Positions 4,248 to 24,936 are shown, counted from the first letter of the stretch. The stretch: 64,000 nucleotides of DNA from a virus (IMGVR_UViG_3300031992_000005:64001-128000), one strand, 5' to 3'. Notes: generated by a model not told the origin, from the letters alone. Numbers and translations are program-made.

Positions 4248-4727
4248 ATGAACAATAGAAATTATTTAGGATTCTTAAAAGAAAAACAGCAATTGTTTAA
4301 TAGAATTGGAATCAAGTGTAAAAGTTTAGATGAACAAGTTTACAAGCTTGAACAAAATGAAAAAGATCTAAGTATTCTTGTAGAAGATCTCAGCGAAAGA
4401 GTTCCATTCAGGCCATTAGTGAAATGTGGAGTAGTAGGTTACCCATTCATCTTAGTGGGAATTGATGTAACTCATGAGAATGTTGCAGTACAGTTGATAA
4501 ATACTTTCAACCATATAAAATTTGAAACAACAATCGATAAGGTAAGACTGTACTTGAGATCTCTAGAGAATATGACAGAGGAAGAAAAACTGGAGGAAGA
4601 AAGACTCCATGATCCTCGAATCTGTATCTCTGAATTAATAACATTCTATAAGAAGAATAACCTCGATTATAGAGGCCTTATCCCAAGAGGTCTTGCAATC
4701 GAACAAATCCCAGAAAACCATGAATAA
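4248..4727 (+). CDS. FamA paralog, divergent (159 aa)
   Basis: Carries VRLYLRSLENMTEEEK and the C-terminal NNLDYRGLIPRGLAIEQ blocks of the 13-23 kb family. The N-terminal block is not conserved. Confidence 0.6.
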   Translation: MNNRNYLGFLKEKQQLFNRIGIKCKSLDEQVYKLEQNEKDLSILVEDLSERVPFRPLVKCGVVGYPFILVGIDVTHENVAVQLINTFNHIKFETTIDKVRLYLRSLENMTEEEKLEEERLHDPRICISELITFYKKNNLDYRGLIPRGLAIEQIPENHE

Positions 4728-4845
4728 GTTATTACAACAACTTTGCGAGGAATTACCTAATTATTCTACAGGTAAAGACGGTAAGCCTTACTTAAGGCCA
4801 TTAACTAACATGACCGAAGAAGAATTAAGGACATTTCGAATTTAA
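4720..4845 (+). CDS. FamA mini-paralog or truncated relic (41 aa)
   Basis: Hand-translated as MNKLLQQLCEELPNYSTGKDGKPYLRPLTNMTEEELRTFRI*. It keeps the N block and the YLRP..MTEEE block only. It is wedged exactly between its neighbours, below the ORF-track cutoff. Confidence 0.35.
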   Translation: MNKLLQQLCEELPNYSTGKDGKPYLRPLTNMTEEELRTFRI

Positions 4846-5082
4846 GTGATGACTCTTGTAAAAAAATTAGGAGAAAAGTTATATAACTGGACAAATAAAA
4901 ACCTACACTTCCTAATTGGTATTGCAATAATAGGAATTGTCTGTTCTATTATTGGACACTATGGAACAATGGGATTTGATCTCAGGTGGTTTTTTGGATT
5001 TGAATTACCATTATACCTATTTCTCCTTTGGGCTATTTTTAAAATAATGAAAATTTTTAAAAATAATGGATCAAAAAGATAA
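4846..5082 (+). CDS. small membrane protein (about 78 aa)
   Basis: Two hydrophobic segments (FLIGIAIIGIVCSIIG, LPLYLFLLWAIF). Start is GTG 4846 or ATG 4849. Confidence 0.5.
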   Translation: MMTLVKKLGEKLYNWTNKNLHFLIGIAIIGIVCSIIGHYGTMGFDLRWFFGFELPLYLFLLWAIFKIMKIFKNNGSKR

Positions 5083-5527
5083 GGAAAAATTAATTCAGAT
5101 TATTTGTGCAATGTTTCCCTACGGTTTAAACTGCTACTACACAATAGATGAAAAGTGGCATAGTATTACCGGAGTAGAAAATGATGCGGTGAGGTTATTG
5201 GGATCTAACGGTCGTCATGAATTTGTTGAAAAGTGGGAAGGAGATCTAGATACAATCAAGATCGGACTTCGACCACTATCTACAATGACCGAAAAAGAGA
5301 AGGAAGAACTATATACAGATCCAGATACTGATTATCTTTGTCGTGCAACAGTAATTGTTCCAGAAAATGAAGAAATTTATTTTAGGTTTGTTGATACCAA
5401 AATCGAATTTCTTTATAAAAACGTTACATTCTTCTTTAAGAAGAAATTTGATATATTGGGTCTAATAGAACAAGGTTTAGCAAAAGAGTATAACTATGAT
5501 AATGATAAATCCTTGGGCAGGATATGA
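5066..5527 (+). CDS. FamA paralog, divergent (153 aa)
   Basis: LIQIICAMFPYGL, IGLRPLSTMTEKEKEE and FDILGLIEQGLAKE correspond to the three FamA blocks. Confidence 0.6.
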   Translation: MDQKDKEKLIQIICAMFPYGLNCYYTIDEKWHSITGVENDAVRLLGSNGRHEFVEKWEGDLDTIKIGLRPLSTMTEKEKEELYTDPDTDYLCRATVIVPENEEIYFRFVDTKIEFLYKNVTFFFKKKFDILGLIEQGLAKEYNYDNDKSLGRI

Positions 5528-12148: not shown

Positions 12149-12178
12149 TCCTCCCTTAACGGGGAGGGATTCTTTTTT
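12149..12178 (+). terminator. intrinsic terminator
   Basis: tcctccc-ttaacg-gggaggg hairpin followed by TTCTTTTTT. Confidence 0.6.
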
Positions 12179-12250
12179 ATTACTCCAGGGCTTTCATTTC
12201 TTTATCTATGTAATGAAATTTATAGATACAAATTCTAAAAATATTATAAT

Positions 12251-12631
12251 ATGGATAAGATCGTTCAAGAAAGGTATTGCTCGCCTAAAGTAGCAAGATT
12301 ATTAGCAAGTAAAGGATTTGATGAACCTATTTGGACTCGTTATGAAGATAACAATGAGGTTATATTTGGTGATAAATATAATTGGAATAGTAGTCCAGTG
12401 GGACAAACATCTGCGCCAACTCAACAAATGGCTATAGACTGGTTAATAGTAAATCACGATATATACATAGAAGTATTTCCTTATTCCAAGGATGAGTATG
12501 CTTTTAGTATTAGTAAACTATTACCTAAAGACGTCGAAGGCTATCCATTACCTAATGAGGAAGAAAGTTATAAAGATATAAGAGTAGCTACAGATACTGC
12601 TCTTGAATATGTACTTGAAAACTTAATCTAA
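12251..12631 (+). CDS. hypothetical protein (possible distant FamC member)
   Basis: The N-terminal S.KVARLLASKGFDEP loosely resembles the S..L..LG.D block of 13663 and 22153. Confidence 0.5.
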   Translation: MDKIVQERYCSPKVARLLASKGFDEPIWTRYEDNNEVIFGDKYNWNSSPVGQTSAPTQQMAIDWLIVNHDIYIEVFPYSKDEYAFSISKLLPKDVEGYPLPNEEESYKDIRVATDTALEYVLENLI

Positions 12632-12846: not shown

Positions 12847-13082
12847 TCAGTAGAGAAGAAGCTAAGAGACAATGCCTTGAATGGGTAGATAAAGAAATTT
12901 CAGAAAAAGGCGAGGATTCTATATATTGCTTATCTCCTTGTATTGGAAAAAATAGCTGGACTCTAAAAGAATATAGAGATGCAGTTATTAACGATGTACC
13001 AATGGAAGGTTGCATAGACAATCCAATAGACGATTATCTTAACTATATAAAATGGAAGGATGAACATGGACGAGGAAAATAA
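12843..13082 (+). CDS. hypothetical protein (79 aa)
   Basis: ATGA overlap with the upstream gene. Confidence 0.5.
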   Translation: MISREEAKRQCLEWVDKEISEKGEDSIYCLSPCIGKNSWTLKEYRDAVINDVPMEGCIDNPIDDYLNYIKWKDEHGRGK

Positions 13083-13476
13083 GTTATTGAGATTTCTCAG
13101 TATGGCTTTACCTTATGGAGTTTTTTGTATAAACTCCGAAGATGAGAATAGTAAAGCCTATAAGCTAAAATCAATTAATAAGCATAAAGGATTATGGTAT
13201 TATGGGTTTGATGGATTTAGCTGTCTTAAACCATTACCGTATCTCCGCCCATTATCTTCTATGACCGAAGAAGAGCATAGTAACTTATTCAATGCTTATC
13301 ATTACTTAGAGGTGAAAGTAGCAAAGTCAACAGGAGATTACTTAAAAGCGGCTTATATAGGTGATGATGCTAAGTATAAGTGGCTTCTTGAAAATAAGTT
13401 TGACTTTCTAGACTTAATTTCAGATGGATTAGCTATTGAAATTACTGAGGAAAACAATCCGTATAAGAAGTTATGA
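13060..13476 (+). CDS. FamA paralog (138 aa)
   Basis: LLRFLSMALPYGV / LPYLRPLSSMTEEE / FDFLDLISDGLAIEITEENNPYKKL. Confidence 0.7.
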   Translation: MNMDEENKLLRFLSMALPYGVFCINSEDENSKAYKLKSINKHKGLWYYGFDGFSCLKPLPYLRPLSSMTEEEHSNLFNAYHYLEVKVAKSTGDYLKAAYIGDDAKYKWLLENKFDFLDLISDGLAIEITEENNPYKKL

Positions 13477-13685
13477 AAACATTTCACTTATTTGGAAAAT
13501 GGCAAGTAACCTTTCTTCATAATATTTACATTAATGAAGATACAAAGAGACTGTCAGAGCTAATAGTTACCCTTATTCCAACTATTCAAATCCTAATAGG
13601 CGGAAAAGGGATAGATGATGAGATATTGATTTCTTGGTTAATATTTACAATACAAGTAGATAATGGCTATTCAAACAGTAAATAA
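13473..13685 (+). CDS. hypothetical protein (70 aa)
   Basis: ATGA-coupled ORF. Confidence 0.4.
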   Translation: MKTFHLFGKWQVTFLHNIYINEDTKRLSELIVTLIPTIQILIGGKGIDDEILISWLIFTIQVDNGYSNSK

Positions 13686-14064
13686 ATTATGCACCTCAAT
13701 TGGACAATCTAACAACCTGAGATCATTAGGACTTGATATCCATACCGCCGACACTTATTGGTGGTTTTCAGGCGATAAGTTCTATATGGGGACGATGGAT
13801 GATGGTGATTTCGACGAAAAAGCTGATCAACCTTCTTGGAGCTTAGCTGCACTGGAAAAGTTAATTCCGCCAACTATAACTGATGATGAAGGTGAAACTT
13901 ATAAAATTTCTATAACAAAAAATGAACAAAGTAAAAAGTGGACTGCTTGCTATGTAAACAAAGAGCACGATCAGGTCTGCTGTATCTTCTGTGAAGAATC
14001 TCCGGACCTAATAGATGTTTTTTATAACACGGTATGTATGTTACTACTTGCGAAAAAAATATGA
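13663..14064 (+). CDS. FamC protein (133 aa)
   Basis: GQSNNLRSLGLDIHTAD and PSWSLAALEKLIP parallel AEQSKRLVELGIDVNTAD and PAWSLSALLDLLP in 22153..22575. Confidence 0.55.
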   Translation: MAIQTVNKLCTSIGQSNNLRSLGLDIHTADTYWWFSGDKFYMGTMDDGDFDEKADQPSWSLAALEKLIPPTITDDEGETYKISITKNEQSKKWTACYVNKEHDQVCCIFCEESPDLIDVFYNTVCMLLLAKKI

Positions 14065-14432
14065 ATACTGCAGAAGAATTTATAAAAAAGTATCCTGTAG
14101 GTACATTAATTTCATACATAGAAGGAGTACAGTATGTACGATCTGGTGCAAGAACTATCTTCAAAATAGGTAGATATGAACGGCGCACGAATGATCCTTG
14201 GGGATATTATATGTATGGGACCTACTGCGGATTTAACTTTCAAACAACAAGTTATAAGAAAGAATATTCTACATCAGACTTACCAAAGTGGCGATGTATC
14301 ATTTGCGAGACTGACCCCTTCGGTACTTCTTTAGGAATACTATCACATAAATTTAACGACGTTAGACTTGCAAACGACCTTGAAACTAGTATATTCAATG
14401 ACTGCATAACTAACGGAAGAGTAATCTCATGA
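14061..14432 (+). CDS. hypothetical protein
   Basis: ATG at 14061 forms an ATGA overlap with the upstream stop. The track start at 14034 is less likely. Confidence 0.5.
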   Translation: MNTAEEFIKKYPVGTLISYIEGVQYVRSGARTIFKIGRYERRTNDPWGYYMYGTYCGFNFQTTSYKKEYSTSDLPKWRCIICETDPFGTSLGILSHKFNDVRLANDLETSIFNDCITNGRVIS

Positions 14433-14863
14433 CTAAACTAGAAAAGCAGTTAATACTTCAGGATCTCTGTTCGAGATTATTATGCGGTGTAGTTTGTAGA
14501 ATCACTTTTACTTACAGTAATGAAACTACATTTGGCGAAGAAGTTGAGAATGAGGTTGATGATACAATTAGTATGATCAACATTAAACGAGAAACAGTTT
14601 TCGCGGACTACTTAGGCCGTGAATTTGATATTGAAAATGTTAAGCCTTATCTTCGTTCAATGGATGATATGACAGAGGAAGAATATAAAGAATATTGGAA
14701 TATTGATAATCGGTCATATTCTTGTCCAATGGTCTGTGCACATATCCCCGCTTCAGAAAGAATAGATTGGCTTAATAAACGTCACTTTGATTACCGTGGA
14801 CTTATTGGAAAATGCCTGGCCATTAAAGTTGATGAAATTAATAATCCTTATGATAAACTATAG
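14429..14863 (+). CDS. FamA paralog (144 aa)
   Basis: LILQDLCSRLLCGV / KPYLRSMDDMTEEE / DWLNKRHFDYRGLIGKCLAIKVDEINNPY. Confidence 0.7.
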   Translation: MTKLEKQLILQDLCSRLLCGVVCRITFTYSNETTFGEEVENEVDDTISMINIKRETVFADYLGREFDIENVKPYLRSMDDMTEEEYKEYWNIDNRSYSCPMVCAHIPASERIDWLNKRHFDYRGLIGKCLAIKVDEINNPYDKL

Positions 14864-14879
14864 ACATTCCAAACCTAAG

Positions 14880-15392
14880 ATGACTGAACAGTGTAAGCAG
14901 CTATTACTTCAAGATCTCTGCTCTAGACTACCATATGGTGTAAAAGTGTATAACACAAGCTTCGCAGAGCCGTATCAGGTACAAACATTATTCGGTAGAA
15001 AGTCAGAGGACGAGTTTATTATGAAAGAAACTTATAAATCTTTTGACTTAAATAACCGTCCAACTCGTATAAAAAATTATACTGGATACTTAGATCGTTT
15101 AAAGCCATATCTTCGACCTATGTCAAGTATGACTAAGGAGGAGAAATTGGAATATATATCCATTATAGATGGAACGCGATGGACTACCACCGTAGGTTTA
15201 GAGGAGAAAATAATTCTATCCATTGACTTAGTAGAGTGTAAAGCCGAAGATGGGACACCTGATAATATATACGATATCATTCAAATGACTCCCATTGATT
15301 GGCTACTAGAGAGACATTTTGATATTAGGGGTCTTATCTATAAAGACCTTGCTATTAAAGTGACAGAAGAAAATAATCCTTATAAAATATGA
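14880..15392 (+). CDS. FamA paralog (170 aa)
   Basis: ATG at 14880 (MTEQCKQLLLQDLCSRLPYGV) is preferred over the track start at 14787. Also KPYLRPMSSMTKEE / DWLLERHFDIRGLIYKDLAIKVTEENNPYKI. Confidence 0.7.
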   Translation: MTEQCKQLLLQDLCSRLPYGVKVYNTSFAEPYQVQTLFGRKSEDEFIMKETYKSFDLNNRPTRIKNYTGYLDRLKPYLRPMSSMTKEEKLEYISIIDGTRWTTTVGLEEKIILSIDLVECKAEDGTPDNIYDIIQMTPIDWLLERHFDIRGLIYKDLAIKVTEENNPYKI

Positions 15393-15796
15393 CACAGGAA
15401 GAAAAATTGCTTTTATTAAAAAGTCTTTGTGAAATGTTGCCTTATAAGGTGAAAGTAGAAATCATTTCATATGGACAAGAGACTTTGAAACCTTGGTTTG
15501 GGGAGTTATCTTGTAAAGACTTAGATTGTTTTATAGTTGATGTAGCATACAAAAGTGTTAAGCCATACCTCCGTCCGATGTCAAGCATGACTGAGGAAGA
15601 AGAAAAAGAGTATAGGAAGACTCAAATTACAAAATGGATTAAAAGTGTTGATTGTGCAGGTGGAGGATACTATGACCATAGAGACACCTTAAAAACATTT
15701 GATTGGCTAAAAGCTAATCATTTTGATTATAGAGGTTTAATCAAGAGAGGTTTAGCCATTAAGGTAACTGATGAAAATAATCCTTATAAATCATGA
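15389..15796 (+). CDS. FamA paralog (135 aa)
   Basis: LLLKSLCEMLPYKV / KPYLRPMSSMTEEE / DWLKANHFDYRGLIKRGLAIKVTDENNPYKS. ATGA-coupled. Confidence 0.7.
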   Translation: MTQEEKLLLLKSLCEMLPYKVKVEIISYGQETLKPWFGELSCKDLDCFIVDVAYKSVKPYLRPMSSMTEEEEKEYRKTQITKWIKSVDCAGGGYYDHRDTLKTFDWLKANHFDYRGLIKRGLAIKVTDENNPYKS

Positions 15797-16134
15797 CTCA
15801 GGAGGAGAAAAAAATTTTGCTCAAAGATCTTTGTGGTAGATTACCTTATGGAACAATTTATGATATTACAATTGGTGGGGTAACCTATGTAAAAGTATCA
15901 TTAAATTCATTTTATTATGGTTTAATTGAAAAAAATTTTAATAATGGGCAATTACAATCAATAGTTCCATATCTTAAAAAAAATGATATGTCATTTGAAC
16001 ATAAAGGTTTTTATTTAGAAAATCTTGATTATGTAATTGATTATTATAACTCTAATCATATTGATTATAGAGGATTTATTGAGAAAGGACTAGCTATTGA
16101 AGTGACTAATGAAAATAATCCATATAAGTTATGA
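15793..16134 (+). CDS. FamA paralog (113 aa), central block degenerate
   Basis: ILLKDLCGRLPYGT / VPYLKKNDMSFE (decayed) / HIDYRGFIEKGLAIEVTNENNPYKL. Confidence 0.65.
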   Translation: MTQEEKKILLKDLCGRLPYGTIYDITIGGVTYVKVSLNSFYYGLIEKNFNNGQLQSIVPYLKKNDMSFEHKGFYLENLDYVIDYYNSNHIDYRGFIEKGLAIEVTNENNPYKL

Positions 16135-16532
16135 CACAAGAAAGTAAAGAACTGATTTTAAAGGATATATGCGGGAGACTCCCTTATGGAACAATTGTTC
16201 AAATATCTCTTTATAGAAATGATGAAAAAAGAAGTGATATTGAATTAGATCCTCATGTAACGGAGAATATTTGGGAAATAATTGATAAATATCATGCGCT
16301 TCCCTATCTACGTCCAATGTCAAGCATGACGGAGGAAGAAAAGATAATACAAAAAACATATATTTATCATTTTTCAGGAAATAATCTTCCTAATTATGAA
16401 GGTGATTTTGTATTTGAAGATGAAGTACATGAATACATTGATTGGCTAAACGCTAATCACTTCGACTATAGAGGCCTTATCGGAAAAGGACTTGCAATCG
16501 AAGTAACGGAAAGTAATAATCCTTATGAATAA
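16131..16532 (+). CDS. FamA paralog (133 aa)
   Basis: LILKDICGRLPYGT / LPYLRPMSSMTEEE / DWLNANHFDYRGLIGKGLAIEVTESNNPYE. Confidence 0.7.
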   Translation: MTQESKELILKDICGRLPYGTIVQISLYRNDEKRSDIELDPHVTENIWEIIDKYHALPYLRPMSSMTEEEKIIQKTYIYHFSGNNLPNYEGDFVFEDEVHEYIDWLNANHFDYRGLIGKGLAIEVTESNNPYE

Positions 16533-16953
16533 TATAATGCAGGAAGATAAAAAAATACTTCTCCAGGATCTTTGTGCAAGATTACCGTATGGAGTAAAAA
16601 TAACAGATGGTTTGAATGTAATCAAAGCAGACCCATTTATCAGTATTGGTGTATTTGTTTATGATGGTAAGTGGAAACCCTATCTCCGTCCAATGTCAAG
16701 TATGACGGAGGAAGAGTATGAAACACTGAAGTCTTTAAGTACTATCTATATTCCCACTGATAGTAGAAATATAGGATTTGAAGATTACGGTATACTAGTA
16801 TTTACGCACCATCTCACCAATAATACTTATAGTTTCAAATTAAACATAAAAGTAATTGATTGGCTTCTTGAAAATCATTTTGATTACAGAGGTCTTATTG
16901 AGAAAGGCCTTGCTATAAAAGTGACAGAAGAAAATAATCCATATAAGTTATGA
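16525..16953 (+). CDS. FamA paralog (142 aa)
   Basis: ILLQDLCARLPYGV / KPYLRPMSSMTEEE / DWLLENHFDYRGLIEKGLAIKVTEENNPYKL. Confidence 0.7.
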   Translation: MNNIMQEDKKILLQDLCARLPYGVKITDGLNVIKADPFISIGVFVYDGKWKPYLRPMSSMTEEEYETLKSLSTIYIPTDSRNIGFEDYGILVFTHHLTNNTYSFKLNIKVIDWLLENHFDYRGLIEKGLAIKVTEENNPYKL

Positions 16954-17417
16954 CAGAACAGGATAAAAAATTACTCTTAATAGATCTCAGTGCAAGGTTT
17001 CCATATGGAGTCATTGTTAGGCATGCAGATCATTTAGTTGACTCCGATGGTAATTATACTGGACAATTTTGGTATAAACGAGGTTATCTATATGATATTT
17101 GTAGGATAGATAATATAACAACTACAATTATCGAAAGTGAAGGTAGCGATGAAGAAGGTAATGAGCATATTTGTGACCTAGAAAGATCTCTGCCTTATCT
17201 CCGCCCAATGTCAAGTATGACGGAGGAAGAGATAAAAGAATTTTATAAAATTGAAAATATAATACCAAAGATGGGATATATTTGCCCGTCAAAAGATTGG
17301 CATTTTACTACCAATGGTTTTGATTGGCTTAATGCTAATCACTTCGACTACAGGGGTCTTATTGAGAAAGGACTTGCTATTGAGGTAACTGATAAAGATA
17401 ATCCATACATATTATGA
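16950..17417 (+). CDS. FamA paralog (155 aa)
   Basis: LLLIDLSARFPYGV / LPYLRPMSSMTEEE / DWLNANHFDYRGLIEKGLAIEVTDKDNPYIL. Confidence 0.7.
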   Translation: MTEQDKKLLLIDLSARFPYGVIVRHADHLVDSDGNYTGQFWYKRGYLYDICRIDNITTTIIESEGSDEEGNEHICDLERSLPYLRPMSSMTEEEIKEFYKIENIIPKMGYICPSKDWHFTTNGFDWLNANHFDYRGLIEKGLAIEVTDKDNPYIL

Positions 17418-17557
17418 CAAAATATTTAATTATTTTAAATCCAGTAGATGGAATATATCAAGTTGATATTGATTTATATGATTCAGAAGAAGCTGCTCGA
17501 CTTAATTCCTTAATTGATGAAGAAGATATTTATAAAATAATTCCAATAGAATTTTAA
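17414..17557 (+). CDS. small acidic hypothetical protein (47 aa)
   Basis: Hand-translated as MTKYLIILNPVDGIYQVDIDLYDSEEAARLNSLIDEEDIYKIIPIEF*. ATGA-coupled to the upstream FamA copy. Confidence 0.35.
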   Translation: MTKYLIILNPVDGIYQVDIDLYDSEEAARLNSLIDEEDIYKIIPIEF

Positions 17558-17560
17558 AAC

Positions 17561-18040
17561 ATGACAAAAGTCAGGATAGAACAAGATAAAAATTTACTAT
17601 ATCAAGACATTTGTGCAAGATTGCCTTACGGTGTGATAGGGCAAATTAGCATAGAAGTACTTGACGGAACCTATGATATAAATAGCGGACACCTTGAATA
17701 TAAAGATGTTGATGTAGATGTTGAATTACTTGGTATACAAGAGGAAGAGATAATCTTTTCGACGATTAATGAAACATATGACGTAAATACATGTACATAT
17801 TTAGACTTTACTCCATATCTCCGTTCGATGTCTAGTATGACTGAGAAAGAGAAGGAAGAGTATTGTAATCTACAATGTATGTTTCTTTATAGCAGCCAGT
17901 ATCCAGTAACAGAAGCTCATAAACTGTTTGATTGGCTTCTTGAGAATCATTTTGATTATCGTGGCCTTATTGAAAAAGGTCTTGCCATTGAAGTTAATGA
18001 AAGTAATAATCCGTATAAAGAGTATGATACAAGAAAGTAA
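17561..18040 (+). CDS. FamA paralog (159 aa)
   Basis: LLYQDICARLPYGV / TPYLRSMSSMTEKE / DWLLENHFDYRGLIEKGLAIEVNESNNPYK, plus a short extension. Confidence 0.7.
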   Translation: MTKVRIEQDKNLLYQDICARLPYGVIGQISIEVLDGTYDINSGHLEYKDVDVDVELLGIQEEEIIFSTINETYDVNTCTYLDFTPYLRSMSSMTEKEKEEYCNLQCMFLYSSQYPVTEAHKLFDWLLENHFDYRGLIEKGLAIEVNESNNPYKEYDTRK

Positions 18041-18413
18041 AAAATTACTAATTCAAAACCTTTGTGCAATGTTACCTTATGGAGTAATGTGCCAAGTAGA
18101 CGTTGGATGCGCGGGTTTAGATGATGGAAAATTAGAAGAGATTGATATTCCAGAGGAGCGTGTGAGATTTGCTGATGATGGTTATTGGGATGCAGATATA
18201 GAAGATGTTAAACCTTATCTTCGTCCAATGTCTAGTATGACAGAGGAAGAGAAGAAAGAGTACCATAAGTTATGCGATAATTACTATGACGTATACTTTG
18301 ATAGTGTTGCTAGCCTGGACTGGCTCAATGCTCATCATTTTGACTACAGGGGCCTTATTGAAAAAGGTCTCGCTATTGAAGTTAATGAAAGTAACAATCC
18401 TTATAAATTATGA
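18024..18413 (+). CDS. FamA paralog (129 aa)
   Basis: ATG at 18024 (MIQESKKLLIQNLCAMLPYGV) is preferred over the track start at 17928. Also KPYLRPMSSMTEEE / DWLNAHHFDYRGLIEKGLAIEVNESNNPYKL. Confidence 0.7.
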   Translation: MIQESKKLLIQNLCAMLPYGVMCQVDVGCAGLDDGKLEEIDIPEERVRFADDGYWDADIEDVKPYLRPMSSMTEEEKKEYHKLCDNYYDVYFDSVASLDWLNAHHFDYRGLIEKGLAIEVNESNNPYKL

Positions 18414-18440
18414 AAGACAAAGAAAAAAAATGTTATTGTT

Positions 18441-18460
18441 ATCCCTTCATCTTATATGAG
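18441..18460 (+). promoter_or_regulatory. copy of phage promoter-like motif
   Basis: atcccttcatcttatatgag lies 46 nt upstream of the ATG at 18506. Confidence 0.35.
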
Positions 18461-18505
18461 AGATTATGATAATAACAGAGAGGAAATCTTCAAATTAGGG
18501 AAGAA

Positions 18506-18856
18506 ATGGCTACAAAACAAGCCATTGCCGAAGATTATGACCTAGACAATATCATCACTAATGACATGGGTGAGATATGGCATGAGGTTGGTGGTCAGGA
18601 TGGCATGTACGATAATTTCCCAATCAAGAGGGTGTATCGTGACAATGGAACTGTCAGAGTATATGCTATTGATAGTGGAGGTGGAGTTGCCATTATTGCA
18701 GGGAAAAATCAGTTTCAGATTCTTACACTTGGAGAAGATGACGGCTGGCACTTTCTTAATTCACGTAGAATATATGAAACATTCTATGGTAGTAAAACGG
18801 ACTTTGTTTATCTGATTTCAGAAGCATTGTCTTTATTTAATAATATCGAATTATAA
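18506..18856 (+). CDS. hypothetical protein (116 aa)
   Basis: ATG ORF. The overlapping frames 18542..18751(-) and 18561..18815 are judged spurious. Confidence 0.5.
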   Translation: MATKQAIAEDYDLDNIITNDMGEIWHEVGGQDGMYDNFPIKRVYRDNGTVRVYAIDSGGGVAIIAGKNQFQILTLGEDDGWHFLNSRRIYETFYGSKTDFVYLISEALSLFNNIEL

Positions 18857-18879
18857 AAAATACGAATTAGAAAATCAAT

Positions 18880-19038
18880 ATGAAAAAAGTATTAATCAGT
18901 ATTTATCATTTTTTCTTCAAGAGGAAAAGATGCAAACATTGTGGGTGTGAATTACATAAATATAACACTTACAAGAATGGTTGGAAAGACTATTGCTGTG
19001 ATTGTGAAGACTTTTGTAGATATACTGGTAATTTATAA
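18880..19038 (+). CDS. Cys-rich mini-protein (52 aa)
   Basis: Hand-translated as MKKVLISIYHFFFKRKRCKHCGCELHKYNTYKNGWKDYCCDCEDFCRYTGNL*. It has 8 Cys. Confidence 0.35.
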   Translation: MKKVLISIYHFFFKRKRCKHCGCELHKYNTYKNGWKDYCCDCEDFCRYTGNL

Positions 19039-19043
19039 TAACA

Positions 19044-19337
19044 ATGAAAACAATTAAAACTCCTAAATACAAGCATTCTAATAATGGAACACCTTATGAA
19101 CATTTAGGGAATAAGGATGAAAGAAAAGAAGCAAGAAAATTTGTTAAATCATTGAGGCACAAATTATTGCTTAATATTCCATTGTCTGACGCTGAAAAAA
19201 GTATTGTAGAAGAGTTTGAAATCACAAAAGATTATAAACTCGATACAAATCACGACGTAATTATCTACAGAGAATTTAAAAATTACGATAATGAAAGGTG
19301 GGTTAATGAAGATGAAATTTATAATTCTAAGAATTAA
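19044..19337 (+). CDS. hypothetical protein (97 aa)
   Basis: ATG ORF in the gene train. Confidence 0.5.
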   Translation: MKTIKTPKYKHSNNGTPYEHLGNKDERKEARKFVKSLRHKLLLNIPLSDAEKSIVEEFEITKDYKLDTNHDVIIYREFKNYDNERWVNEDEIYNSKN

Positions 19338-19345
19338 TAAAGGTT

Positions 19346-19786
19346 ATGTACGACGAAAAATTTATAGATGTTTTTAACGAACATTATCCATTTGAAAGAT
19401 ATATCGTTAAGACTCCAAAAGCAGTGGGATTGCTATTTGACGACGCATTATTAACTGAAATATTTATTCCAGATGCTGAGGAAAAAGCTAATCGTCCTTA
19501 CCTAAATAAAGACAAAATTAGCATAAAAATACAAGGTCCTGCTGGGGAAATGAGATTCTGGTTCTATGACTTCGAAGAACATATTCGCCTAAATATTATT
19601 AGAATTATAATAGAGGATATTGGAGATTATCAATATGAGTGTTTATATATTGATAACGAAGATATGGAACCGTTAATAGATGAACTCAAAACTCAAAAGT
19701 CATTAATAGAAAAGAAATATAATATTTGTAAAATAAAACAAAACCTAGTAGACAAAAGTTTTGCAGACGAATCAATCTATAAATAA
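19346..19786 (+). CDS. hypothetical protein (146 aa)
   Basis: ATG ORF in the gene train. Confidence 0.5.
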   Translation: MYDEKFIDVFNEHYPFERYIVKTPKAVGLLFDDALLTEIFIPDAEEKANRPYLNKDKISIKIQGPAGEMRFWFYDFEEHIRLNIIRIIIEDIGDYQYECLYIDNEDMEPLIDELKTQKSLIEKKYNICKIKQNLVDKSFADESIYK

Positions 19787-19788
19787 CT

Positions 19789-20250
19789 ATGACTCAAACC
19801 AAATTAACCGAACAAGGTAAGCAGTTACTCTTAATGGATCTCTGTGCGAGGTTGCCTTATGGAGTAATGTGCGATATGGGATTAAAACATCCATTGCAAT
19901 TACAAAGAATTCTTGTGGATAAACTTGATGGTAATTTACTGGATTTTTATGAAGATGGTAATGATTATCAAGTATATTTAAGTGAAGTTAAGCCATATCT
20001 CCGTTCAATGTCAAGTATGACAAAGGAAGAAAGTATAGAATTACAAACGATTCTAAATGATTGGTGGAATAAAGAGCTTTTTACATTAACAGAAGAACCA
20101 ATGATAGAATATGCATTGTCTTCTATTAATTATACTCTTAATCCTACATTGTTTGATTGGCTTAATAAGAAACATTTTGATTATCGTGGGCTTATTAAAA
20201 AAGGCCTTGCTATAAAAGTAACGGAAGAGAATAATCCTTATAAACTATGA
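19789..20250 (+). CDS. FamA paralog (153 aa)
   Basis: LLLMDLCARLPYGV / KPYLRSMSSMTKEE / DWLNKKHFDYRGLIKKGLAIKVTEENNPYKL. Confidence 0.7.
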   Translation: MTQTKLTEQGKQLLLMDLCARLPYGVMCDMGLKHPLQLQRILVDKLDGNLLDFYEDGNDYQVYLSEVKPYLRSMSSMTKEESIELQTILNDWWNKELFTLTEEPMIEYALSSINYTLNPTLFDWLNKKHFDYRGLIKKGLAIKVTEENNPYKL

Positions 20251-20675
20251 CAGAACAAGGTAAGCAGTTACTCTTGATAGATCTTTGTGCAAGATTACCT
20301 TATGGAGTAAAAGTATGGTATAAATATGGTGCATGGTTTTCTGAAAAGTTTGCAACATCAATAAGATTGGCTGATGAAAAAATTGCCCTTTCCTCTAAAT
20401 TCAATAAAGAAGGCGATTGGTTTCCCATCGAAGAAGCAGGGAAAATTCTAATTAAACCTTATCTCCGTCCGATGTCAAGTATGACTGAGGAAGAAAAAGT
20501 TCAATTATCTCAATATGCTTGCATTGGAGAAGATTTAAATGGAGAATTTATAGACGAAGTACAAAGAAAGGATTGTGCGCCATATATTGATTGGCTCAAT
20601 AAACACCACTTTGACTATCATGGGTTGATTGAGAAGGGTTTAGCGTTAGAAGCACCAAAAGGAATGTATAACTAA
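20247..20675 (+). CDS. FamA paralog (142 aa)
   Basis: LLLIDLCARLPYGV / KPYLRPMSSMTEEE / DWLNKHHFDYHGLIEKGLALEAPKGMYN. Confidence 0.7.
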   Translation: MTEQGKQLLLIDLCARLPYGVKVWYKYGAWFSEKFATSIRLADEKIALSSKFNKEGDWFPIEEAGKILIKPYLRPMSSMTEEEKVQLSQYACIGEDLNGEFIDEVQRKDCAPYIDWLNKHHFDYHGLIEKGLALEAPKGMYN

Positions 20676-20688
20676 AACTTACAAAAAG

Positions 20689-20805
20689 ATGCCTTATATA
20701 TATTTTCCTATTGAATTTTCTTCTTATGTAGATTATGTTAAATACCTAAAAGAAAAAAGTTTCGCTATTGACGTAACAGATGTAATTAACTCATATAAGT
20801 TATGA
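20689..20805 (+). pseudogene. FamA C-terminal relic (38 codons), possibly re-used as promoter/5' leader
   Basis: Translates to MPYIYFPIEFSSYVDYVKYLKEKSFAIDVTDVINSYKL*. The tail FAIDVTDVINSYKL parallels LAIEVTEENNPYKL and keeps the TTATGA junction with the next copy. Its first bases (gatgccttatatatat) also match the promoter motif. Confidence 0.35.
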
Positions 20806-21248
20806 CAGAAGAAGAAAAAGAAATATTGTTAAAAGACCTTTGTGGTAGATTACATTATAGAGTCCTTGTTAGTTACAAAGGCTTAATATACCCACTATTC
20901 AGTGTTGTCCCTACACAACATTTTCAAATCACGCTTGATAGTAGTAAATATTGTGGATTAGTGCATATCAGTCTTGATGATGATGGTGAAAAGCCAAAAC
21001 CTTATCTTCGTCCGATGTCAAGTATGACTGAGGAAGAGAAGAGGGAATATTTCTCATTTATTGGTGGTGTGAGACCATTTGACTGTGATTTTTCTGCATA
21101 TCCGATAGAGTACAAATTCGTTTATGAACATGATATAAATAGTTATATTGATTGGCTCAACAAACACCACTTTGACTATCGTGGATTAATTGAAAAAGGC
21201 CTCGCCATTGAAGCACTAGAAGGAATGTATAATTTAAAAATGGAATAA
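20802..21248 (+). CDS. FamA paralog (148 aa)
   Basis: ILLKDLCGRLHYRV / KPYLRPMSSMTEEE / DWLNKHHFDYRGLIEKGLAIEALEGMYN. Confidence 0.7.
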   Translation: MTEEEKEILLKDLCGRLHYRVLVSYKGLIYPLFSVVPTQHFQITLDSSKYCGLVHISLDDDGEKPKPYLRPMSSMTEEEKREYFSFIGGVRPFDCDFSAYPIEYKFVYEHDINSYIDWLNKHHFDYRGLIEKGLAIEALEGMYNLKME

Positions 21249-21252
21249 AATT

Positions 21253-21405
21253 ATGACTGTTCAAATAAATAAACCAAGATGGAAAAATAAAGAGTGGACG
21301 TTTAATTTAATTCCATATTTGTCAATAACAAAAATCTCTAACTTAGTTATTGCAATTAACATTGGATGGCTATTTTGGGGAATAACAATTAGTAATAATT
21401 TCTAA
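21253..21405 (+). CDS. small membrane protein (50 aa)
   Basis: Hand-translated as MTVQINKPRWKNKEWTFNLIPYLSITKISNLVIAINIGWLFWGITISNNF*. Confidence 0.3.
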   Translation: MTVQINKPRWKNKEWTFNLIPYLSITKISNLVIAINIGWLFWGITISNNF

Positions 21406-21411
21406 ATAATC

Positions 21412-21567
21412 ATGGAACAGAAAAGCAAAGAATTACTATTAAACCTTCTTTCAGAATTAAATGAGAAAGGTTTATTATATATCTATGACAAGGATGAATC
21501 AAATTACTCAATGGATTGGGTATTTTTCGACGGAGAAAAATTATGCATAAAAATTGAGAAAATCTAG
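21412..21567 (+). CDS. small hypothetical protein (51 aa)
   Basis: Hand-translated as MEQKSKELLLNLLSELNEKGLLYIY.. . Its N-terminus faintly echoes the FamA N block. Preferred over the antisense track ORF 21410..21691. Confidence 0.3.
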   Translation: MEQKSKELLLNLLSELNEKGLLYIYDKDESNYSMDWVFFDGEKLCIKIEKI

Positions 21568-21569
21568 TC

Positions 21570-21785
21570 ATGGAAGAATTATTATTCGATAACGTAATGG
21601 ACGGTGAATCATTGGTTAAAGATATATTAAATACTGATGGCGTAAGCTCTATCACGGACGATAATGGAAAATCGTATTGGTGGAATACCATTGATAAGAC
21701 AAGAAATTATCAAGTTAGGAAATATAAATATGATAGAGCACTCCAAGACTATTCAGTTATTTCATATAAAATAAAGGAATTGTAA
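21570..21785 (+). CDS. hypothetical protein (71 aa)
   Basis: ATG ORF in the gene train. Confidence 0.45.
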   Translation: MEELLFDNVMDGESLVKDILNTDGVSSITDDNGKSYWWNTIDKTRNYQVRKYKYDRALQDYSVISYKIKEL

Positions 21786-21795
21786 TAATTATATT

Positions 21796-22140
21796 ATGAT
21801 ACCGGAAAGTAAAAGGCTATTAATCACAGACCTCTGTGCAAGACTACCTTATGATACTATAGTTAGTGTTGCAGAAGGAGGGATTGATGGGGTTCAATGG
21901 AATAAGTCAACATTAAATTTCTATCTACTTCATCAGATCGAAGAGGAAGATGGTTGGGAATTCATTAAACCCTATCTACGTCCAATGGATGATATGACAG
22001 AGGAAGAATCTGAAGAATTTTCCAATATGGAAATCGTAGGTTACTCTAACTATGATTGGCTAAATGCCCATCACTTTGACTATAGAGGCCTTATCGAAAA
22101 AGGACTTGCAATAGATTGTACTGGTTTAAATATTTACTAA
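21796..22140 (+). CDS. FamA paralog (114 aa)
   Basis: LLITDLCARLPYDT / KPYLRPMDDMTEEE / DWLNAHHFDYRGLIEKGLAIDCTGLNIY. Confidence 0.7.
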   Translation: MIPESKRLLITDLCARLPYDTIVSVAEGGIDGVQWNKSTLNFYLLHQIEEEDGWEFIKPYLRPMDDMTEEESEEFSNMEIVGYSNYDWLNAHHFDYRGLIEKGLAIDCTGLNIY

Positions 22141-22152
22141 AATTAAAAAACT

Positions 22153-22575
22153 ATGTCTAAAATTGGTACTTCAGCAGAACAATCTAAGAGACTCGTAGAA
22201 TTAGGAATTGATGTAAATACTGCTGATATGGCATTATGTGGTACACAATTATTAACAACAAGTTACGTATTAGCAAAAAAGAAATTTAGTAATGCTGGTG
22301 AAATCCCTATTGAACCTGCATGGAGTCTTTCTGCTTTGTTGGATTTGTTACCATGTAGCTTGTCTTTATATCCAGAAGCCACGGAAGAAGGAGTAAAAGA
22401 AGGTAAATATAGAAGCTCTGATTTAATTGCTTCAAAAGAAGGTTTTCTTAGAAAAAGATATGATGGCGATTATCAATACAGATACGATGGAATTAAAGTG
22501 GTAGGAGATTTTCAAAATCCTACTGATGCAGTATTTGAAATTATTTGTTGGTTAAAAGAAAATAATAAAATATGA
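22153..22575 (+). CDS. FamC protein (140 aa)
   Basis: AEQSKRLVELGIDVNTAD and PAWSLSALLDLLP. Paralog of 13663..14064. Confidence 0.55.
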   Translation: MSKIGTSAEQSKRLVELGIDVNTADMALCGTQLLTTSYVLAKKKFSNAGEIPIEPAWSLSALLDLLPCSLSLYPEATEEGVKEGKYRSSDLIASKEGFLRKRYDGDYQYRYDGIKVVGDFQNPTDAVFEIICWLKENNKI

Positions 22576-22976
22576 CACAAGAAGGAAAATTTCTTTTATT
22601 GAAAGACCTAAATGCAAGGTTGCCTTATGGAGTTTATGTAGAGCATACAACCACAAAAATAAGAGGCAAATTAAAGGGTATGATGTTTGAACATATCTAC
22701 AATGACACAGATTCTATTCAAGATATAAATGCTTGGGCAATGTTTTTCGGGGATGAATATGTGGATGCTACATATTTTAGGCCAATCTTACGTCCAATGT
22801 CAAGTATGACAGAGGAAGAAAGAAAGGAGTATAAGCATCTTGTAGCATTTAGTGGTAGTCCTGATGGAGCAACAAATTTTACAGACTGGCTAAATGCTAA
22901 TCACTTCGACTATAGAGGTCTTATTGAAAAGGGTTTAGCTATTGAAGTAACAGAAAAGAATAATCCATATAAATAG
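22572..22976 (+). CDS. FamA paralog (134 aa)
   Basis: LLLKDLNARLPYGV / RPILRPMSSMTEEE / DWLNANHFDYRGLIEKGLAIEVTEKNNPYK. Confidence 0.7.
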   Translation: MTQEGKFLLLKDLNARLPYGVYVEHTTTKIRGKLKGMMFEHIYNDTDSIQDINAWAMFFGDEYVDATYFRPILRPMSSMTEEERKEYKHLVAFSGSPDGATNFTDWLNANHFDYRGLIEKGLAIEVTEKNNPYK

Positions 22977-23219: not shown

Positions 23220-23325
23220 TATGGATGGCAGTAGAGAACAGTACTACGAAGGTAAAAAAGATGCTTACCTAGACTGTGCGGAAATTCTTGAAAAGTATTT
23301 ATCTCAATCATCAGATAAACTATGA
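23155..23325 (+). CDS. small hypothetical protein (56 aa)
   Basis: Hand-translated as MTTLKDIIQYLKKKSAVKCQPSMDGSREQYYEGKKDAYLDCAEILEKYLSQSSDKL*. ATGA-coupled to 23322. It overlaps the 3' end of 23022..23219. Confidence 0.3.
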   Translation: MTTLKDIIQYLKKKSAVKCQPSMDGSREQYYEGKKDAYLDCAEILEKYLSQSSDKL

Positions 23326-23669
23326 ATACTATAAAAATATTCGTCAAGAATTTATTTGGGTTACCGGTCACTAGAGTTGATGTCTTGAAACGGGCTAGAG
23401 ACTATAAATGGACTAGTGGTCTATGTATTGCCATCAAATGTGCTTTATGGGACTTTAATATTCCTACCGAACCTAAAAATGTTGTCTCGAAGTTGTATTT
23501 CCCAGAGTTCAATCGAAAAAGTGCACTAGTATTTGGCGCAGATCCTTACAGTGTATTTTGGTGGGAAGTACACAATTGGTCTACAGGTAGGGAAAGATAT
23601 TTAAATTACCTGATAAACTGTTATAAAGATGATAAAATTAATTTAAGAAAATTAGCATATGATGAATGA
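23322..23669 (+). CDS. FamB paralog (115 aa)
   Basis: LPVTRVDVLKRA..GLCIAI..FPEFNRKSALVFGA..WWEVHNWSTGRERYLNYLINCYKDDKINLRKL. Confidence 0.6.
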   Translation: MNTIKIFVKNLFGLPVTRVDVLKRARDYKWTSGLCIAIKCALWDFNIPTEPKNVVSKLYFPEFNRKSALVFGADPYSVFWWEVHNWSTGRERYLNYLINCYKDDKINLRKLAYDE

Positions 23670-24063
23670 TTGGAAATTAAAAATAAAGGGAGCTATAAAG
23701 AAGTTTATTTTGAAGATTATTCAAGTATATTTCTTTTATATACCCAAACCCGTAACGAGAGTTGAAGTTTTAAGGCGTGTAAAATCACTTAAAACTGGCA
23801 AAGGACTATGTGGAGGTTTACTCTATGTAATGGGGCAGGAATTTGATTTAGATATTTCTATATCTACTGCATTTCCACTATTCACTAATGAAAATGCACG
23901 AAAATTTGGAGCAAAACCAGTAGAAGAATTCATGTCGCGCTATGAATACTGGTGGAAAATGGGAAAATGGAATACTGGTAGAGAAGATTTTCTAGATTGG
24001 CTGATAGAACAGTATAAAGATGATACGACAAATCTAAGAAAATTAAAATACCATGAAGATTAA
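23659..24063 (+). CDS. FamB paralog (134 aa)
   Basis: PVTRVEVLRRV..GLCGGL..FPLFTNENARKFGA..WWKMGKWNTGREDFLDWLIEQYKDDTTNLRKL. Confidence 0.6.
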   Translation: MMNDWKLKIKGAIKKFILKIIQVYFFYIPKPVTRVEVLRRVKSLKTGKGLCGGLLYVMGQEFDLDISISTAFPLFTNENARKFGAKPVEEFMSRYEYWWKMGKWNTGREDFLDWLIEQYKDDTTNLRKLKYHED

Positions 24064-24433
24064 AGATTACCTAATAGTAGCACTAATACTGGCACTTTCT
24101 ACTCTAGCACTATTAATTATAGGATTTTTTATAGGAATTCCCGTATATCTTTTTCTAACTTGGAATATTTTTATAGGATGTGTCTTATCCTCTATTTACC
24201 TAATAGTCTTTTTTGAATTATTCTTTGGTTCTAAGGAAGAATATGTTGAATTTGAAGTAGGAGATGTATTGAAATACTTGGAAGAAGATGCTAGAACATG
24301 GCAAGGAAAAAACTATGTAATAGTAAAAAATATTGGTGAATTAGATGGGAAAAAGATCCTAGAATTTGAAGATGGTACTTGGGAATATGCACATAAAGCT
24401 AATCACAATTATTATAAAATAGGAAGAAAATGA
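24053..24433 (+). CDS. membrane protein (126 aa)
   Basis: Two N-terminal TM helices and a soluble C-terminal half. Confidence 0.5.
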   Translation: MKIKDYLIVALILALSTLALLIIGFFIGIPVYLFLTWNIFIGCVLSSIYLIVFFELFFGSKEEYVEFEVGDVLKYLEEDARTWQGKNYVIVKNIGELDGKKILEFEDGTWEYAHKANHNYYKIGRK

Positions 24434-24936
24434 ATAAGAAAAAAGTACTATTTGCCGACTTAGATGGAACATTAATCGAGACGGCAACAGGAAAAACATT
24501 TCCTCTTGGTATCTGGGATATGAAATTTAAGTTTGATGTCCTAGATGCTATAAAAAAGTATAACTTCGAAGGTTTAATAATCGTCACTAATCAAGGTGGC
24601 ATTGAAAAAGGATTAGTTAATGAGAAACACTTTGTAAAAGCAAAGATGGCTTATGTAACTAAATCTTTGGAAGAATATTTACATATTCCAGTCAAATTTG
24701 TTTACTGTGCGTCCAATGACAAGGATTGTGGGCATAGAAAACCTAATACCGGTATGTTAGAAAACGCTTATTGGAAGTTCATTATTAATCAATGGAAAAT
24801 GAATATCAATAAAAGTGATATGCTTATGATAGGTGATGCTAGTGGTAAACCTGGCCAATTCTCTGATTCAGATAAAAAGACCGCAGAGAATTATGGCATT
24901 GACTATATGGATATCGAAGATTTTAAGGCTCTCTAG
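24430..24936 (+). CDS. HAD-superfamily (IIIA-like, PNKP/GmhB-type) phosphatase
   Basis: Motif I FADLDGTL, motif II VTNQGG, motif III RKPNTGM and motif IV GDASG..SDSD, in canonical order. Confidence 0.7.
   Translation: MNKKKVLFADLDGTLIETATGKTFPLGIWDMKFKFDVLDAIKKYNFEGLIIVTNQGGIEKGLVNEKHFVKAKMAYVTKSLEEYLHIPVKFVYCASNDKDCGHRKPNTGMLENAYWKFIINQWKMNINKSDMLMIGDASGKPGQFSDSDKKTAENYGIDYMDIEDFKAL

Follow-up and report, generated by a model that had tools for sequence, protein, structure and literature searches.

The window analysed here, a stretch of 64,000 nucleotides of viral DNA (IMGVR_UViG_3300031992_000005:64001-128000), contains a tandem array of small paralogous genes, which we term FamA. Each copy is built on a constant frame of three conserved blocks (block 1 or N-block, block 2 or central block, and block 3 or C-block), which are separated by two variable segments, M1 between the first and second blocks and M2 between the second and third. 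The FamA complement of the window is composed of 15 intact paralogs, two divergent full-length copies and two decayed remnants, all located on the plus strand. A hidden Markov model (HMM) built from the copies and run in a six-frame scan of the window recovers each of the 15 paralogs at E = 1e-40 to 1e-54, which excludes a chance origin of the array. The initial annotation, made from the sequence alone, had reported 15 plus-strand genes of 113-170 amino acids, and all of them are present at the starts that it gave, both as open reading frames (ORFs) and in the HMM scan. These copies stand, but the family reaches beyond the span first assigned to it, with two full-length members and a mini-copy located upstream and an extra remnant inside the array. 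The FamA features of the window are the following.

4248..4727, plus strand: divergent full-length FamA member, 159 amino acids (HMM E = 9e-16), outside the span first reported.
4720..4845, plus strand: truncated mini-copy, 41 amino acids (HMM E = 1e-6).
5066..5527, plus strand: divergent full-length FamA member, 153 amino acids (HMM E = 4e-18), outside the span first reported.
13060..13476, plus strand: copy c01, 138 amino acids, with a divergent C-block (HMM E = 2e-45).
14429..14863, plus strand: copy c02, 144 amino acids, M2 cassette 'NIDNRSYSCPMVCAHIPASER'.
14880..15392, plus strand: copy c03, 170 amino acids, with the longest cassettes (M1 53 and M2 51 amino acids).
15389..15796, plus strand: copy c04, 135 amino acids, ATGA overlap with c03.
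15793..16134, plus strand: copy c05, 113 amino acids, central block degenerate (VPYLKKNDMSFEH).
16131..16532, plus strand: copy c06, 133 amino acids, its M1 type joined to a c04-type M2 in other phages.
16525..16953, plus strand: copy c07, 142 amino acids, from ORF and HMM.
16950..17417, plus strand: copy c08, 155 amino acids, its M1 fused in another contig (L042) to a different M2 and a c09-type tail.
17561..18040, plus strand: copy c09, 159 amino acids, from ORF and HMM.
18024..18413, plus strand: copy c10, 129 amino acids, used for the main AlphaFold2 model.
19789..20250, plus strand: copy c11, 153 amino acids, from ORF and HMM.
20247..20675, plus strand: copy c12, 142 amino acids, with the alternative tail ..EAPKGMYN.
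20701..20805, plus strand: decayed FamA C-block remnant (..KSFAIDVTDVINSYKL*), ending in the usual ATGA junction with c13.
20802..21248, plus strand: copy c13, 148 amino acids, with the tail ..EALEGMYNLKME.
21796..22140, plus strand: copy c14, 114 amino acids, with the tail ..DCTGLNIY, a type found in low-GC phage contigs.
22572..22976, plus strand: copy c15, 134 amino acids, M2 cassette at about 22824-22910.

In the mini-copy at 4720-4845, the central block follows almost directly after the N-block (..GKPYLRPLTNMTEEEL..), and both M2 and the C-block are lacking. An assembly artefact is excluded, since three independent contigs from other samples carry the array sequence with 100% identity wherever they overlap it; L004, one of the three, extends across the full set of 15 copies. 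In addition, a 51-amino-acid ORF at 21412-21567 (plus strand) has an N-terminus (MEQKSKELLLNLLSELNEKG) resembling the FamA N-block and lacks the other blocks; it may be a further FamA remnant or an independent small gene.

The three blocks agree with their initial description. Block 1 corresponds to an N-terminal helix (K.LLL.DLCARLPYGV), block 2 contains the fifth strand of a barrel followed by a turn and a helix (KPYLRPMSSMTEEE), and block 3 forms a C-terminal helix and an extended tail (DWLN..HFDYRGLIEKGLAIEV..NNPY). The two segments between them are unalignable, as had been claimed, with the highest pairwise identity among the window copies reaching 0.29 for M1 and 0.33 for M2; their lengths in the 15 copies are 26-59 amino acids for M1 and 12-51 for M2, in place of the roughly 20-75 and 10-55 first estimated. 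Adjacent genes are closely joined. An ATGA overlap is found at the start of seven copies (c02, c04, c05, c06, c08, c12 and c15), fewer than the majority previously indicated, and three further copies overlap the upstream gene by 8, 17 or 23 nucleotides. What had been described as a conserved junction simply encodes ..NNPYKL* and then MTQ... As adjacent genes abut, the C-block of one gene and the N-block of the next together form a repeated conserved junction of about 130 nucleotides. This repeated junction, together with the remnants, accounts for gain, loss and fusion of copies by unequal crossing-over.

Comparison with other phages shows that M1 and M2 are discrete cassettes. Recombination in the blocks reassorts them independently of each other, among paralogs as well as among phages. 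Copy c10 and the member P0008 share 90% identity in M1 but 26% in M2, and the M2 of P0008 is 89% identical to that of c02. Other members show further combinations: P0078 joins a c10-type M1 to a c13-type M2, P0076 carries a different M1 with the c10 M2, and P0016, P0034, P0051 and P0057 all combine the c06 M1 with the c04 M2. When cassettes at least 70% identical are counted as similar, the 14,878 pairs formed by 173 members include 20 with similarity in both cassettes, 63 in which it is limited to M1 and 449 in which it is limited to M2. The commonest M2 type in this sample, that of c02, is found with 28 different M1 partners. A second, independent sample, obtained from 113 loci and divided into segments with hmmalign, consists of 240 unique copies with 194 M1 types and 193 M2 types; at least two different partners occur for 30 of its 31 multi-member M1 types and 29 of its 31 multi-member M2 types. 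Cassette types are conserved at 70-97% identity across phages while the partner cassette changes. The initial annotation had pictured hypervariation in place; the diversity instead consists of discrete types, exchanged by recombination in the blocks.

Individual exchanges can be followed in the DNA. A gene in contig L044 is 73-90% identical to c10 from its start to the central block, shares 93-100% nucleotide identity with c12 across M2, and falls to 60-77% identity with c12 in the C-block, a pattern indicating that the M2 cassette alone moved. Contig L042 shares synteny with the c07-c10 stretch, at 94% identity across c07 and the beginning of c08. It contains a single gene composed of the c08 M1, a novel M2 and the c09 tail, carries the c10 M1 with a c02-type M2, and lacks three genes at 18506-19337. 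Replacement is also observed at short range, between the window and a strain (L001) 97.8% identical to it, where the M2 of c15 differs entirely (KHLVAFSGSPDGATNFT -> GLVLCDELSINQY) with exact flanks in TEEER and DWLNA. The argument initially made against gene conversion therefore holds in part: the blocks are not homogenised, but cassettes are replaced even between strains about 98% identical. Besides exchange, the sequences indicate that copies are fused, deleted and truncated, in a birth-and-death turnover. Assembly chimeras were considered as a source of the mosaics and found unlikely, in view of the identical independent contigs, the recurrence of mosaics on several contigs and the short exact runs within blocks. 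We are highly confident that FamA is, in its anatomy and its evolution, a two-cassette mosaic multigene family of rumen jumbo phages.

The frame is old. For pairs of paralogs, the median proportion of synonymous differences (pS) in the blocks is 0.72, which is saturated (lowest pair 0.43), and the median proportion of non-synonymous differences (pN) is 0.22. The blocks are thus conserved as protein rather than as DNA, and the duplications are old, in line with the initial proposal of ancient copies held by purifying selection. Between the L001 strain and the window, the blocks differ by 37 synonymous and 20 non-synonymous changes and the variable parts by 16 of each, with 11 of the latter 16 non-synonymous changes falling in the single swapped segment of c15; recalculated from these counts with that segment left out, pN/pS in the variable parts is about 0.08. 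Across phages, comparison within cassette types (pairs sharing a type at 60-97% identity) gives descriptive ratios of non-synonymous to synonymous substitution rates (dN/dS) of 0.12 for M1 (92 pairs) and 0.18 for M2 (53 pairs), so the variable parts are not neutral linkers. Three observations had been named at the outset that would speak against the first interpretation, namely a housekeeping domain, near-zero synonymous divergence between copies, or inserts drifting as neutral linkers; the scaffold matches no housekeeping domain, synonymous divergence is saturated, and the inserts are constrained at the values just given.

Synonymous differences between the window and L001 are three times denser in the blocks than in the variable parts (0.069 vs 0.023). 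Moreover, c11 of L001 contains a 20-nucleotide patch (19815-19824) identical to the c08 sequence at 16956; for most of the clustered synonymous patches, no donor was found in the window. These observations are suggestive, not conclusive, of gene conversion from paralogs within the blocks.

The same data bear on a non-adaptive origin of the array, in which one function borne by the frame would have been duplicated by unequal crossing-over and the cassettes would be tolerated filler. The repeated junction favours such crossing-over, the remnants and fusions demonstrate birth-and-death turnover, arrays avoid repeated cassette types no more than expected by chance, and small phages manage with one copy. 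Yet all 15 copies are intact, purifying selection is detected in frame and cassettes alike, cassette types persist across phages at the identities given above despite the change of partner, and large arrays recur in several jumbo phage lineages. We consider a purely non-adaptive expansion very unlikely.

The AlphaFold2 model of c10, computed from a 129-sequence alignment, has a predicted local distance difference test score (pLDDT) of 92.7 and a predicted template modelling score (pTM) of 0.86. Assigned with DSSP, it starts with a helix at residues 3-19, corresponding to block 1, followed by strands at 22-26, 32-41, 46-50, 55-58 and 62-67. The last of these is formed by KPYLRP of block 2 and represents the fifth strand of the barrel. 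The C-terminal half contains a helix at 74-83 starting from TEEE, a hairpin at 85-92 that corresponds to M2, and a helix at 95-103 starting from DWLN, after which an extended tail is confidently placed. In this model, M1 constitutes strands 1-4 of a five-stranded SH3/Sm/Tudor-like barrel and is not a loop, so the idea that the first insert is a loop carried on the scaffold has to be abandoned. M2, placed between the two helices, varies from a hairpin up to a segment of 51 residues. In the model of c03, the longest copy (170 amino acids), the frame has pLDDT above 90, M1 has 69-89, and the 51-residue M2 lies below 57.

Conserved polar residues of the frame include R16, R67, E74-76, H105, D107, Y108, R109, N124-125 and Y127, and their conservation suggests a role beyond packing. 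The proteins are acidic, with a family median isoelectric point (pI) of 4.9; 84% of members lie below 5.5, and the net charge falls as low as -16. All 15 copies have a negative grand average of hydropathy (GRAVY), and none of them contains a hydrophobic N-terminal or membrane-like segment.

A Foldseek search with the c10 model returned nothing from the PDB at E <= 0.001, the best match having E = 0.043 and a query template modelling score (TM) of 0.32. The best weak fold matches are ribosomal protein L24 (KOW), Tudor and Gemin6/7, all with E >= 0.04 and query TM <= 0.34. The only matches in BFVD at E <= 0.001 are two phage proteins without an informative name. These weak matches are the starting point for an alternative in which the barrel binds RNA or DNA and the copies are many sequence-specific regulators of transcription or translation. 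As in Sm/LSm proteins, a bent sheet of five strands follows the N-terminal helix, and L24, Tudor and Gemin6/7 are the best, though weak, PDB matches. Expansions of putative DNA-binding proteins are documented in jumbo phages: Bacillus phage G has lineage-specific expansions of Zn-ribbon and Myb-type proteins, with about 35 Zn-ribbon copies (PMC7824862). The strongly acidic character of the family speaks against nucleic-acid binding, as does the low significance of every fold match. Furthermore, Sm, KOW and Tudor proteins bear their ligand-binding motifs in the part of the barrel that in FamA is not conserved and can be swapped. We judge a regulator function unlikely.

By profile comparison, FamA is PHROG 10841, an uncharacterised family and the sole one of the families tested to which it belongs. 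The PHROG 10841 profile matches 127 of the 129 members in the alignment (A2) with a best E of 3e-14, and all eight window copies scanned, at E 8e-5 to 1.2e-10. The window copies have no match at gathering score in Pfam, NCBIfam or PADLOC, and a sequence-profile search of the PDB found none either (best E 0.55), in keeping with the early judgement that the scaffold is not a named domain. A Pfam scan of the 129 members at E <= 1 gave scattered noise, topped by Ribosomal_L9_N (13 of 129, best E 0.026). For characterised anti-defence proteins, the comparison covered the entries in Pfam, and in the scan of single copies these gave one sub-threshold match, AcrF31 at E = 0.21. Kinship with the large repeat proteins of the window, with an ORF at 12251-12631 or with another at 22153-22575 was tried with hhalign, which showed none.

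The family comprises at least 8,000 clusters at 90% identity; at 50% identity there are 10,526 clusters with E <= 1e-3 and 4,401 with E <= 1e-10, almost all of them metagenomic. Nearly all members are stand-alone proteins of 120-160 amino acids, and the longer ones contain tandem fusions and low-complexity or uninformative extensions but no informative domain fusions. A query of 49 amino acids, used to look for an M2 cassette outside the frame, returned nothing, but the word prefilter let no candidate through, so that this negative carries no information. Among 50,697 GenBank phage records searched with three family queries, the only cultured carriers are the Cellulophaga phages phi10:1 (gp046) and phi13:1 (gp097), whose proteins share 30-34% identity with the query over 91-94% of its length in the best tblastn alignments. 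Both phages have a single copy, which lies amid small hypothetical genes outside the structural module. Neither megablast of the DNA nor tblastn with a low-GC variant found a match among the GenBank phages. Most loci elsewhere have 1-4 copies, and the large arrays belong to other jumbo phages: 27 copies in 20 kb in a 413-kb uncultivated virus genome (L075) and 15-16 in one of 388 kb (L116). The related rumen jumbo phages that carry arrays have genomes of about 320-413 kb. No description of the family or of its cassette behaviour was found in the literature searched.

The organisation of the array also recalls immunity genes. In polymorphic toxin systems, immunity genes form tandem poly-immunity arrays of similar layout, and each FamA copy might likewise neutralise a different toxin, whether an abortive-infection toxin, a polymorphic toxin delivered by neighbouring bacteria or a toxin of rival phages. 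FamA proteins are small, acidic and probably soluble, occur in long tandem arrays of diversified paralogs and exchange cassettes, and the window encodes RNA-repair functions, namely a PNK-type 3'-phosphatase (24430-24936) and a CCA-adding enzyme (57348-58727). However, no Pfam match to polymorphic-toxin immunity families (SUKH, Imm*) was obtained, toxin genes are not interleaved with the copies, and the neighbouring ORFs have no toxin domains. An antitoxin-like function, which we regard as improbable, would moreover be a special case of target binding that sequence data cannot separate from binding in general.

The window belongs to a very large phage genome. The longest contig carrying its proteins has 353,905 bp, and the samples are metagenome assemblies of the Joint Genome Institute (JGI) and the European Nucleotide Archive (ENA). 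These are taken to be rumen samples, because closely related contigs derive from metagenome-assembled genomes (MAGs) of the rumen. Relatives are found in gut metagenomes, of ruminants and others, on contigs of 100-413 kb that have in many cases been binned as 'MAGs' of Prevotella, Bacteroidales, Firmicutes or Tenericutes. Shine-Dalgarno cores precede four of the 72 genes (background 14%), and this near absence of the motif suggests a host of the Bacteroidota type. No tRNA genes were detected in the window with ARAGORN. GC skew changes sign with the coding strand: it is negative between about 44 and about 60 kb and positive on either side.

The array lies in an accessory-gene region. The plus-strand block of the window carries genes for DNA and RNA metabolism, and the stretch at 12-24.5 kb contains no interleaved genes for methyltransferases or restriction enzymes. 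The FamA genes are co-directional and tightly packed, which agrees with the co-transcription first suggested, and a consensus scan detects no terminator inside the array. The sole plus-strand terminator-like site within it, at 15700-15720 in c04, coincides with block-3 coding sequence (GATTGGCTAAAAGCTAATCATTTTGATTAT = DWLKANHFDY). The copies are probably translationally coupled in part, judging from the overlaps between genes. The same scan, on consensus only, places two sites ahead of the small-gene cluster.

12149..12168, plus strand: terminator-like hairpin (8 pairs) with a T run after it, preceding the small-gene cluster.
12219-12250: promoter-like site, after the terminator-like hairpin.

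This setting is relevant to the idea that FamA proteins are virion-associated, as decoration proteins, internal or ejected proteins, or assembly chaperones, with the frame docked on the particle and the cassettes displayed. A constant frame with variable modules suits docking and display, the particles of jumbo phages contain paralog families (the inner-body protein families of phiKZ-like phages serve as a comparison), and BspA-type leucine-rich repeat (LRR) proteins are encoded 20 kb away. The window, however, contains no virion genes, and the block holds topoisomerase II, the PNK phosphatase and an SMC-like ATPase. The phi10:1 record marks its portal protein, but not gp046, with a 'structural virion proteome' note, while the neighbourhood of gp097 in phi13:1 carries no structural-proteome notes at all. 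FamA proteins also have no signal peptide, immunoglobulin-like fold or protease-site pattern. A place in the virion appears highly improbable.

Several other genes surround the array. A second small paralog family is interleaved with it at 13663-14064 and 22153-22575 (plus strand; 31% identity, E = 6e-8), shares the motif 'LG(L/I)D..TAD ... P(S/A)WSL(A/S)AL..L(I/L)P' and matches no known family; the ORF at 12251-12631 may be distantly related to the pair. Directly downstream of the array, a pair of paralogs at 23322-23669 and 23659-24063 (plus strand; 40% identity, E = 7e-24) carries the motifs 'PVTRV.VL.R' and 'W.TGRE..L..LI..YKDD..NLRKL'. Between array segments, within the 18506-19337 block, lies a Cys-rich ORF of 52 amino acids (18880-19038, plus strand; CKHCGC...CCDCEDFC), possibly a zinc ribbon. 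Upstream, three repeat-built proteins without Pfam match are encoded on the plus strand at 5801-7840 (679 amino acids), 9013-9993 (about 300 amino acids) and 10031-12142 (703 amino acids), with the motifs 'F.GDW(I/V)V', 'LWTI.DAK.GDVL', 'HPATKEQ..LF....GY.WD' and 'DE(R/K)IRK...WLEKQ'. Their region is 88-96% identical between strains, against 97.8% elsewhere. A 'DERIRK...LEK' protein is also encoded directly downstream of a single FamA copy in an unrelated contig of 47% GC (L020, 8351-9613). In a related jumbo-phage contig of about 329 kb (L120), an IS605-family OrfB / TnpB (Cas12f-like) gene at 6098-7258 lies near a FamA copy, amid small accessory genes.

Further along the window, genes for T4-type topoisomerase II subunits (a GyrB-like ATPase/Toprim part and a GyrA-like part) and, between them, a gene for a 395-amino-acid double-HNH endonuclease occupy 30221-31828, 33071-34258 and 34643-35980 (plus strand); the HNH gene looks like a homing-endonuclease insertion in the topoisomerase locus. 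A 906-amino-acid ORF at 48494-51214 (minus strand) encodes a calcineurin-like phosphoesterase (SbcD/Mre11-like) at its N-terminus together with an SMC/SbcC-like ATPase and appears to be a fused SbcDC nuclease. A 5'-3' exonuclease is also encoded. The PNK-type 3'-phosphatase mentioned above is on the plus strand, and the CCA-adding tRNA nucleotidyltransferase, which has an HD domain, is on the minus strand; a GroEL chaperonin is encoded at 60804-62438 (plus strand). RNA-repair and chaperone functions of this kind are typical of very large phages. The BspA-type LRR proteins (PF13306) are encoded on the minus strand at 43764-46097 (E = 1e-171) and 46114-47571 (E = 2e-72), the former gene containing a 69-nucleotide tandem repeat of 10.4 copies at 43966-44685; both are candidates for host-adhesion or receptor-binding proteins.

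For the function of FamA, we propose as most likely that the copies, expressed together, form a repertoire of binders or adaptors with two modules each, directed against variable targets in the host or in competitors, a possibility to which we give somewhat less than even credence. Their fold, and probably one contact common to all copies (self-association or docking to a single partner), would come from the constant frame, and M1 and M2 would each confer a specificity of their own towards variable targets. Free reassortment implies that little co-adaptation between the cassettes is needed, which fits modules that act independently. Given the open-ended diversity of the cassettes and the expansion of the family in the largest genomes, the most plausible partners would be proteins of rival phages or variable host targets connected with defence or takeover. 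A stronger version of this proposal, that FamA constitutes a germline-encoded combinatorial recognition repertoire of 15 to more than 27 co-expressed members, serving as a broad counter-defence or takeover 'library', is put forward with considerable doubt. Recombination in the frame blocks would then keep producing new cassette combinations, within a phage as well as between phages, and the system would be a viral analogue of binder systems built from a framework plus variable regions.

A number of points weigh against the binder proposal. The profile and fold searches revealed no similarity to characterised anti-defence, immunity or adaptor proteins. An ongoing arms race would be expected to leave positive selection, of which the purifying dN/dS within cassette types gives no sign. 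Arrays do not avoid repeated cassette types beyond random assortment; the type space is so large that the lack of repeats within arrays is not significant, and selection for a non-redundant repertoire was dropped as an explanation since random assortment yields the same result. The conserved polar residues of the frame could instead form an active site or a nucleic-acid contact, and folding of the long M2 cassettes is predicted at low confidence only. Co-transcription of the copies is probable, on the basis of gene packing and the consensus scan only. Finally, the pairs counted for dN/dS and for reassortment are not phylogenetically independent, and those figures are descriptive.

FamA is a very large family that has remained nearly invisible, with no Pfam entry and no solved structure, although it fills tens of kilobases in some of the largest phage genomes of gut and rumen. 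The two-cassette mosaic offers a concrete and testable idea for much of the dark matter of jumbo phages. If the targets are indeed host defence proteins, the catalogue of cassettes would map the conflict between phages and hosts in Bacteroidota-rich ecosystems, from which few phages have been cultured. In addition, a confidently predicted modular scaffold of about 130 amino acids that tolerates replacement of two segments may be of use in protein engineering.

Among known systems, the Cellulophaga members of PHROG 10841 are true sequence relatives, but they occur as one copy per phage, compared with at least 17 here and up to 27 in related phages. The closest likeness in layout is to HsdS, the specificity subunit of type I restriction-modification systems. 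HsdS is composed of a first target recognition domain (TRD1), a central conserved region, TRD2 and a distal conserved region, and recombination in the conserved parts reassorts the modules. FamA shares with it two variable modules split by conserved, recombination-prone regions, as known here from sequence comparison. It differs in having no sequence or fold relationship to HsdS, no Methylase_S match and one third of the size; moreover, its M1 is predicted to form an SH3-like barrel, and its copies are apparently all expressed and not phase-variable.

The conserved motifs of the T-even adhesin gp38 likewise act as recombination points for the swapping of variable segments. In gp38, a single-copy virion adhesin at the fibre tip, the hypervariable segments are bounded by conserved glycine-rich motifs; FamA is multi-copy, acidic, probably non-virion and unrelated in sequence. 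Diversity-generating retroelements (DGRs) use a reverse transcriptase and a template repeat to alter adenine-templated positions of a variable repeat that otherwise stays alignable. FamA genes were rejected as DGR targets, since such mutagenesis cannot yield unalignable cassettes of variable length (26-59 and 12-51 amino acids); no search aimed at a reverse transcriptase was made. With Sm/LSm (Hfq-like) proteins, FamA shares a predicted topology of an N-terminal helix followed by five strongly bent antiparallel strands. It is distinguished from them by the lack of Sm1/Sm2 motifs, by strands 1-4 that are unalignable, and by the additional conserved helix, hairpin, helix and tail. The Foldseek top 50 contain no Hfq or Sm entries, and Gemin6/7 and the Edc3/Scd6 LSm domain appear at E above 0.1.

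As sets of genes, the MGF360/505 families of African swine fever virus (ASFV) and the ankyrin/F-box families of poxviruses are tandem, co-oriented, old paralogs in accessory regions and are thought to act in host interaction. The Zn-ribbon family of Bacillus phage G resembles FamA in consisting of anciently diverged paralogs in a very large viral genome, although fold and family differ. Combinatorial exchange of two internal cassettes is not described for these multigene families of large viruses in the literature searched. FamA belongs with two known kinds of system, the viral multigene family and the modular specificity protein.

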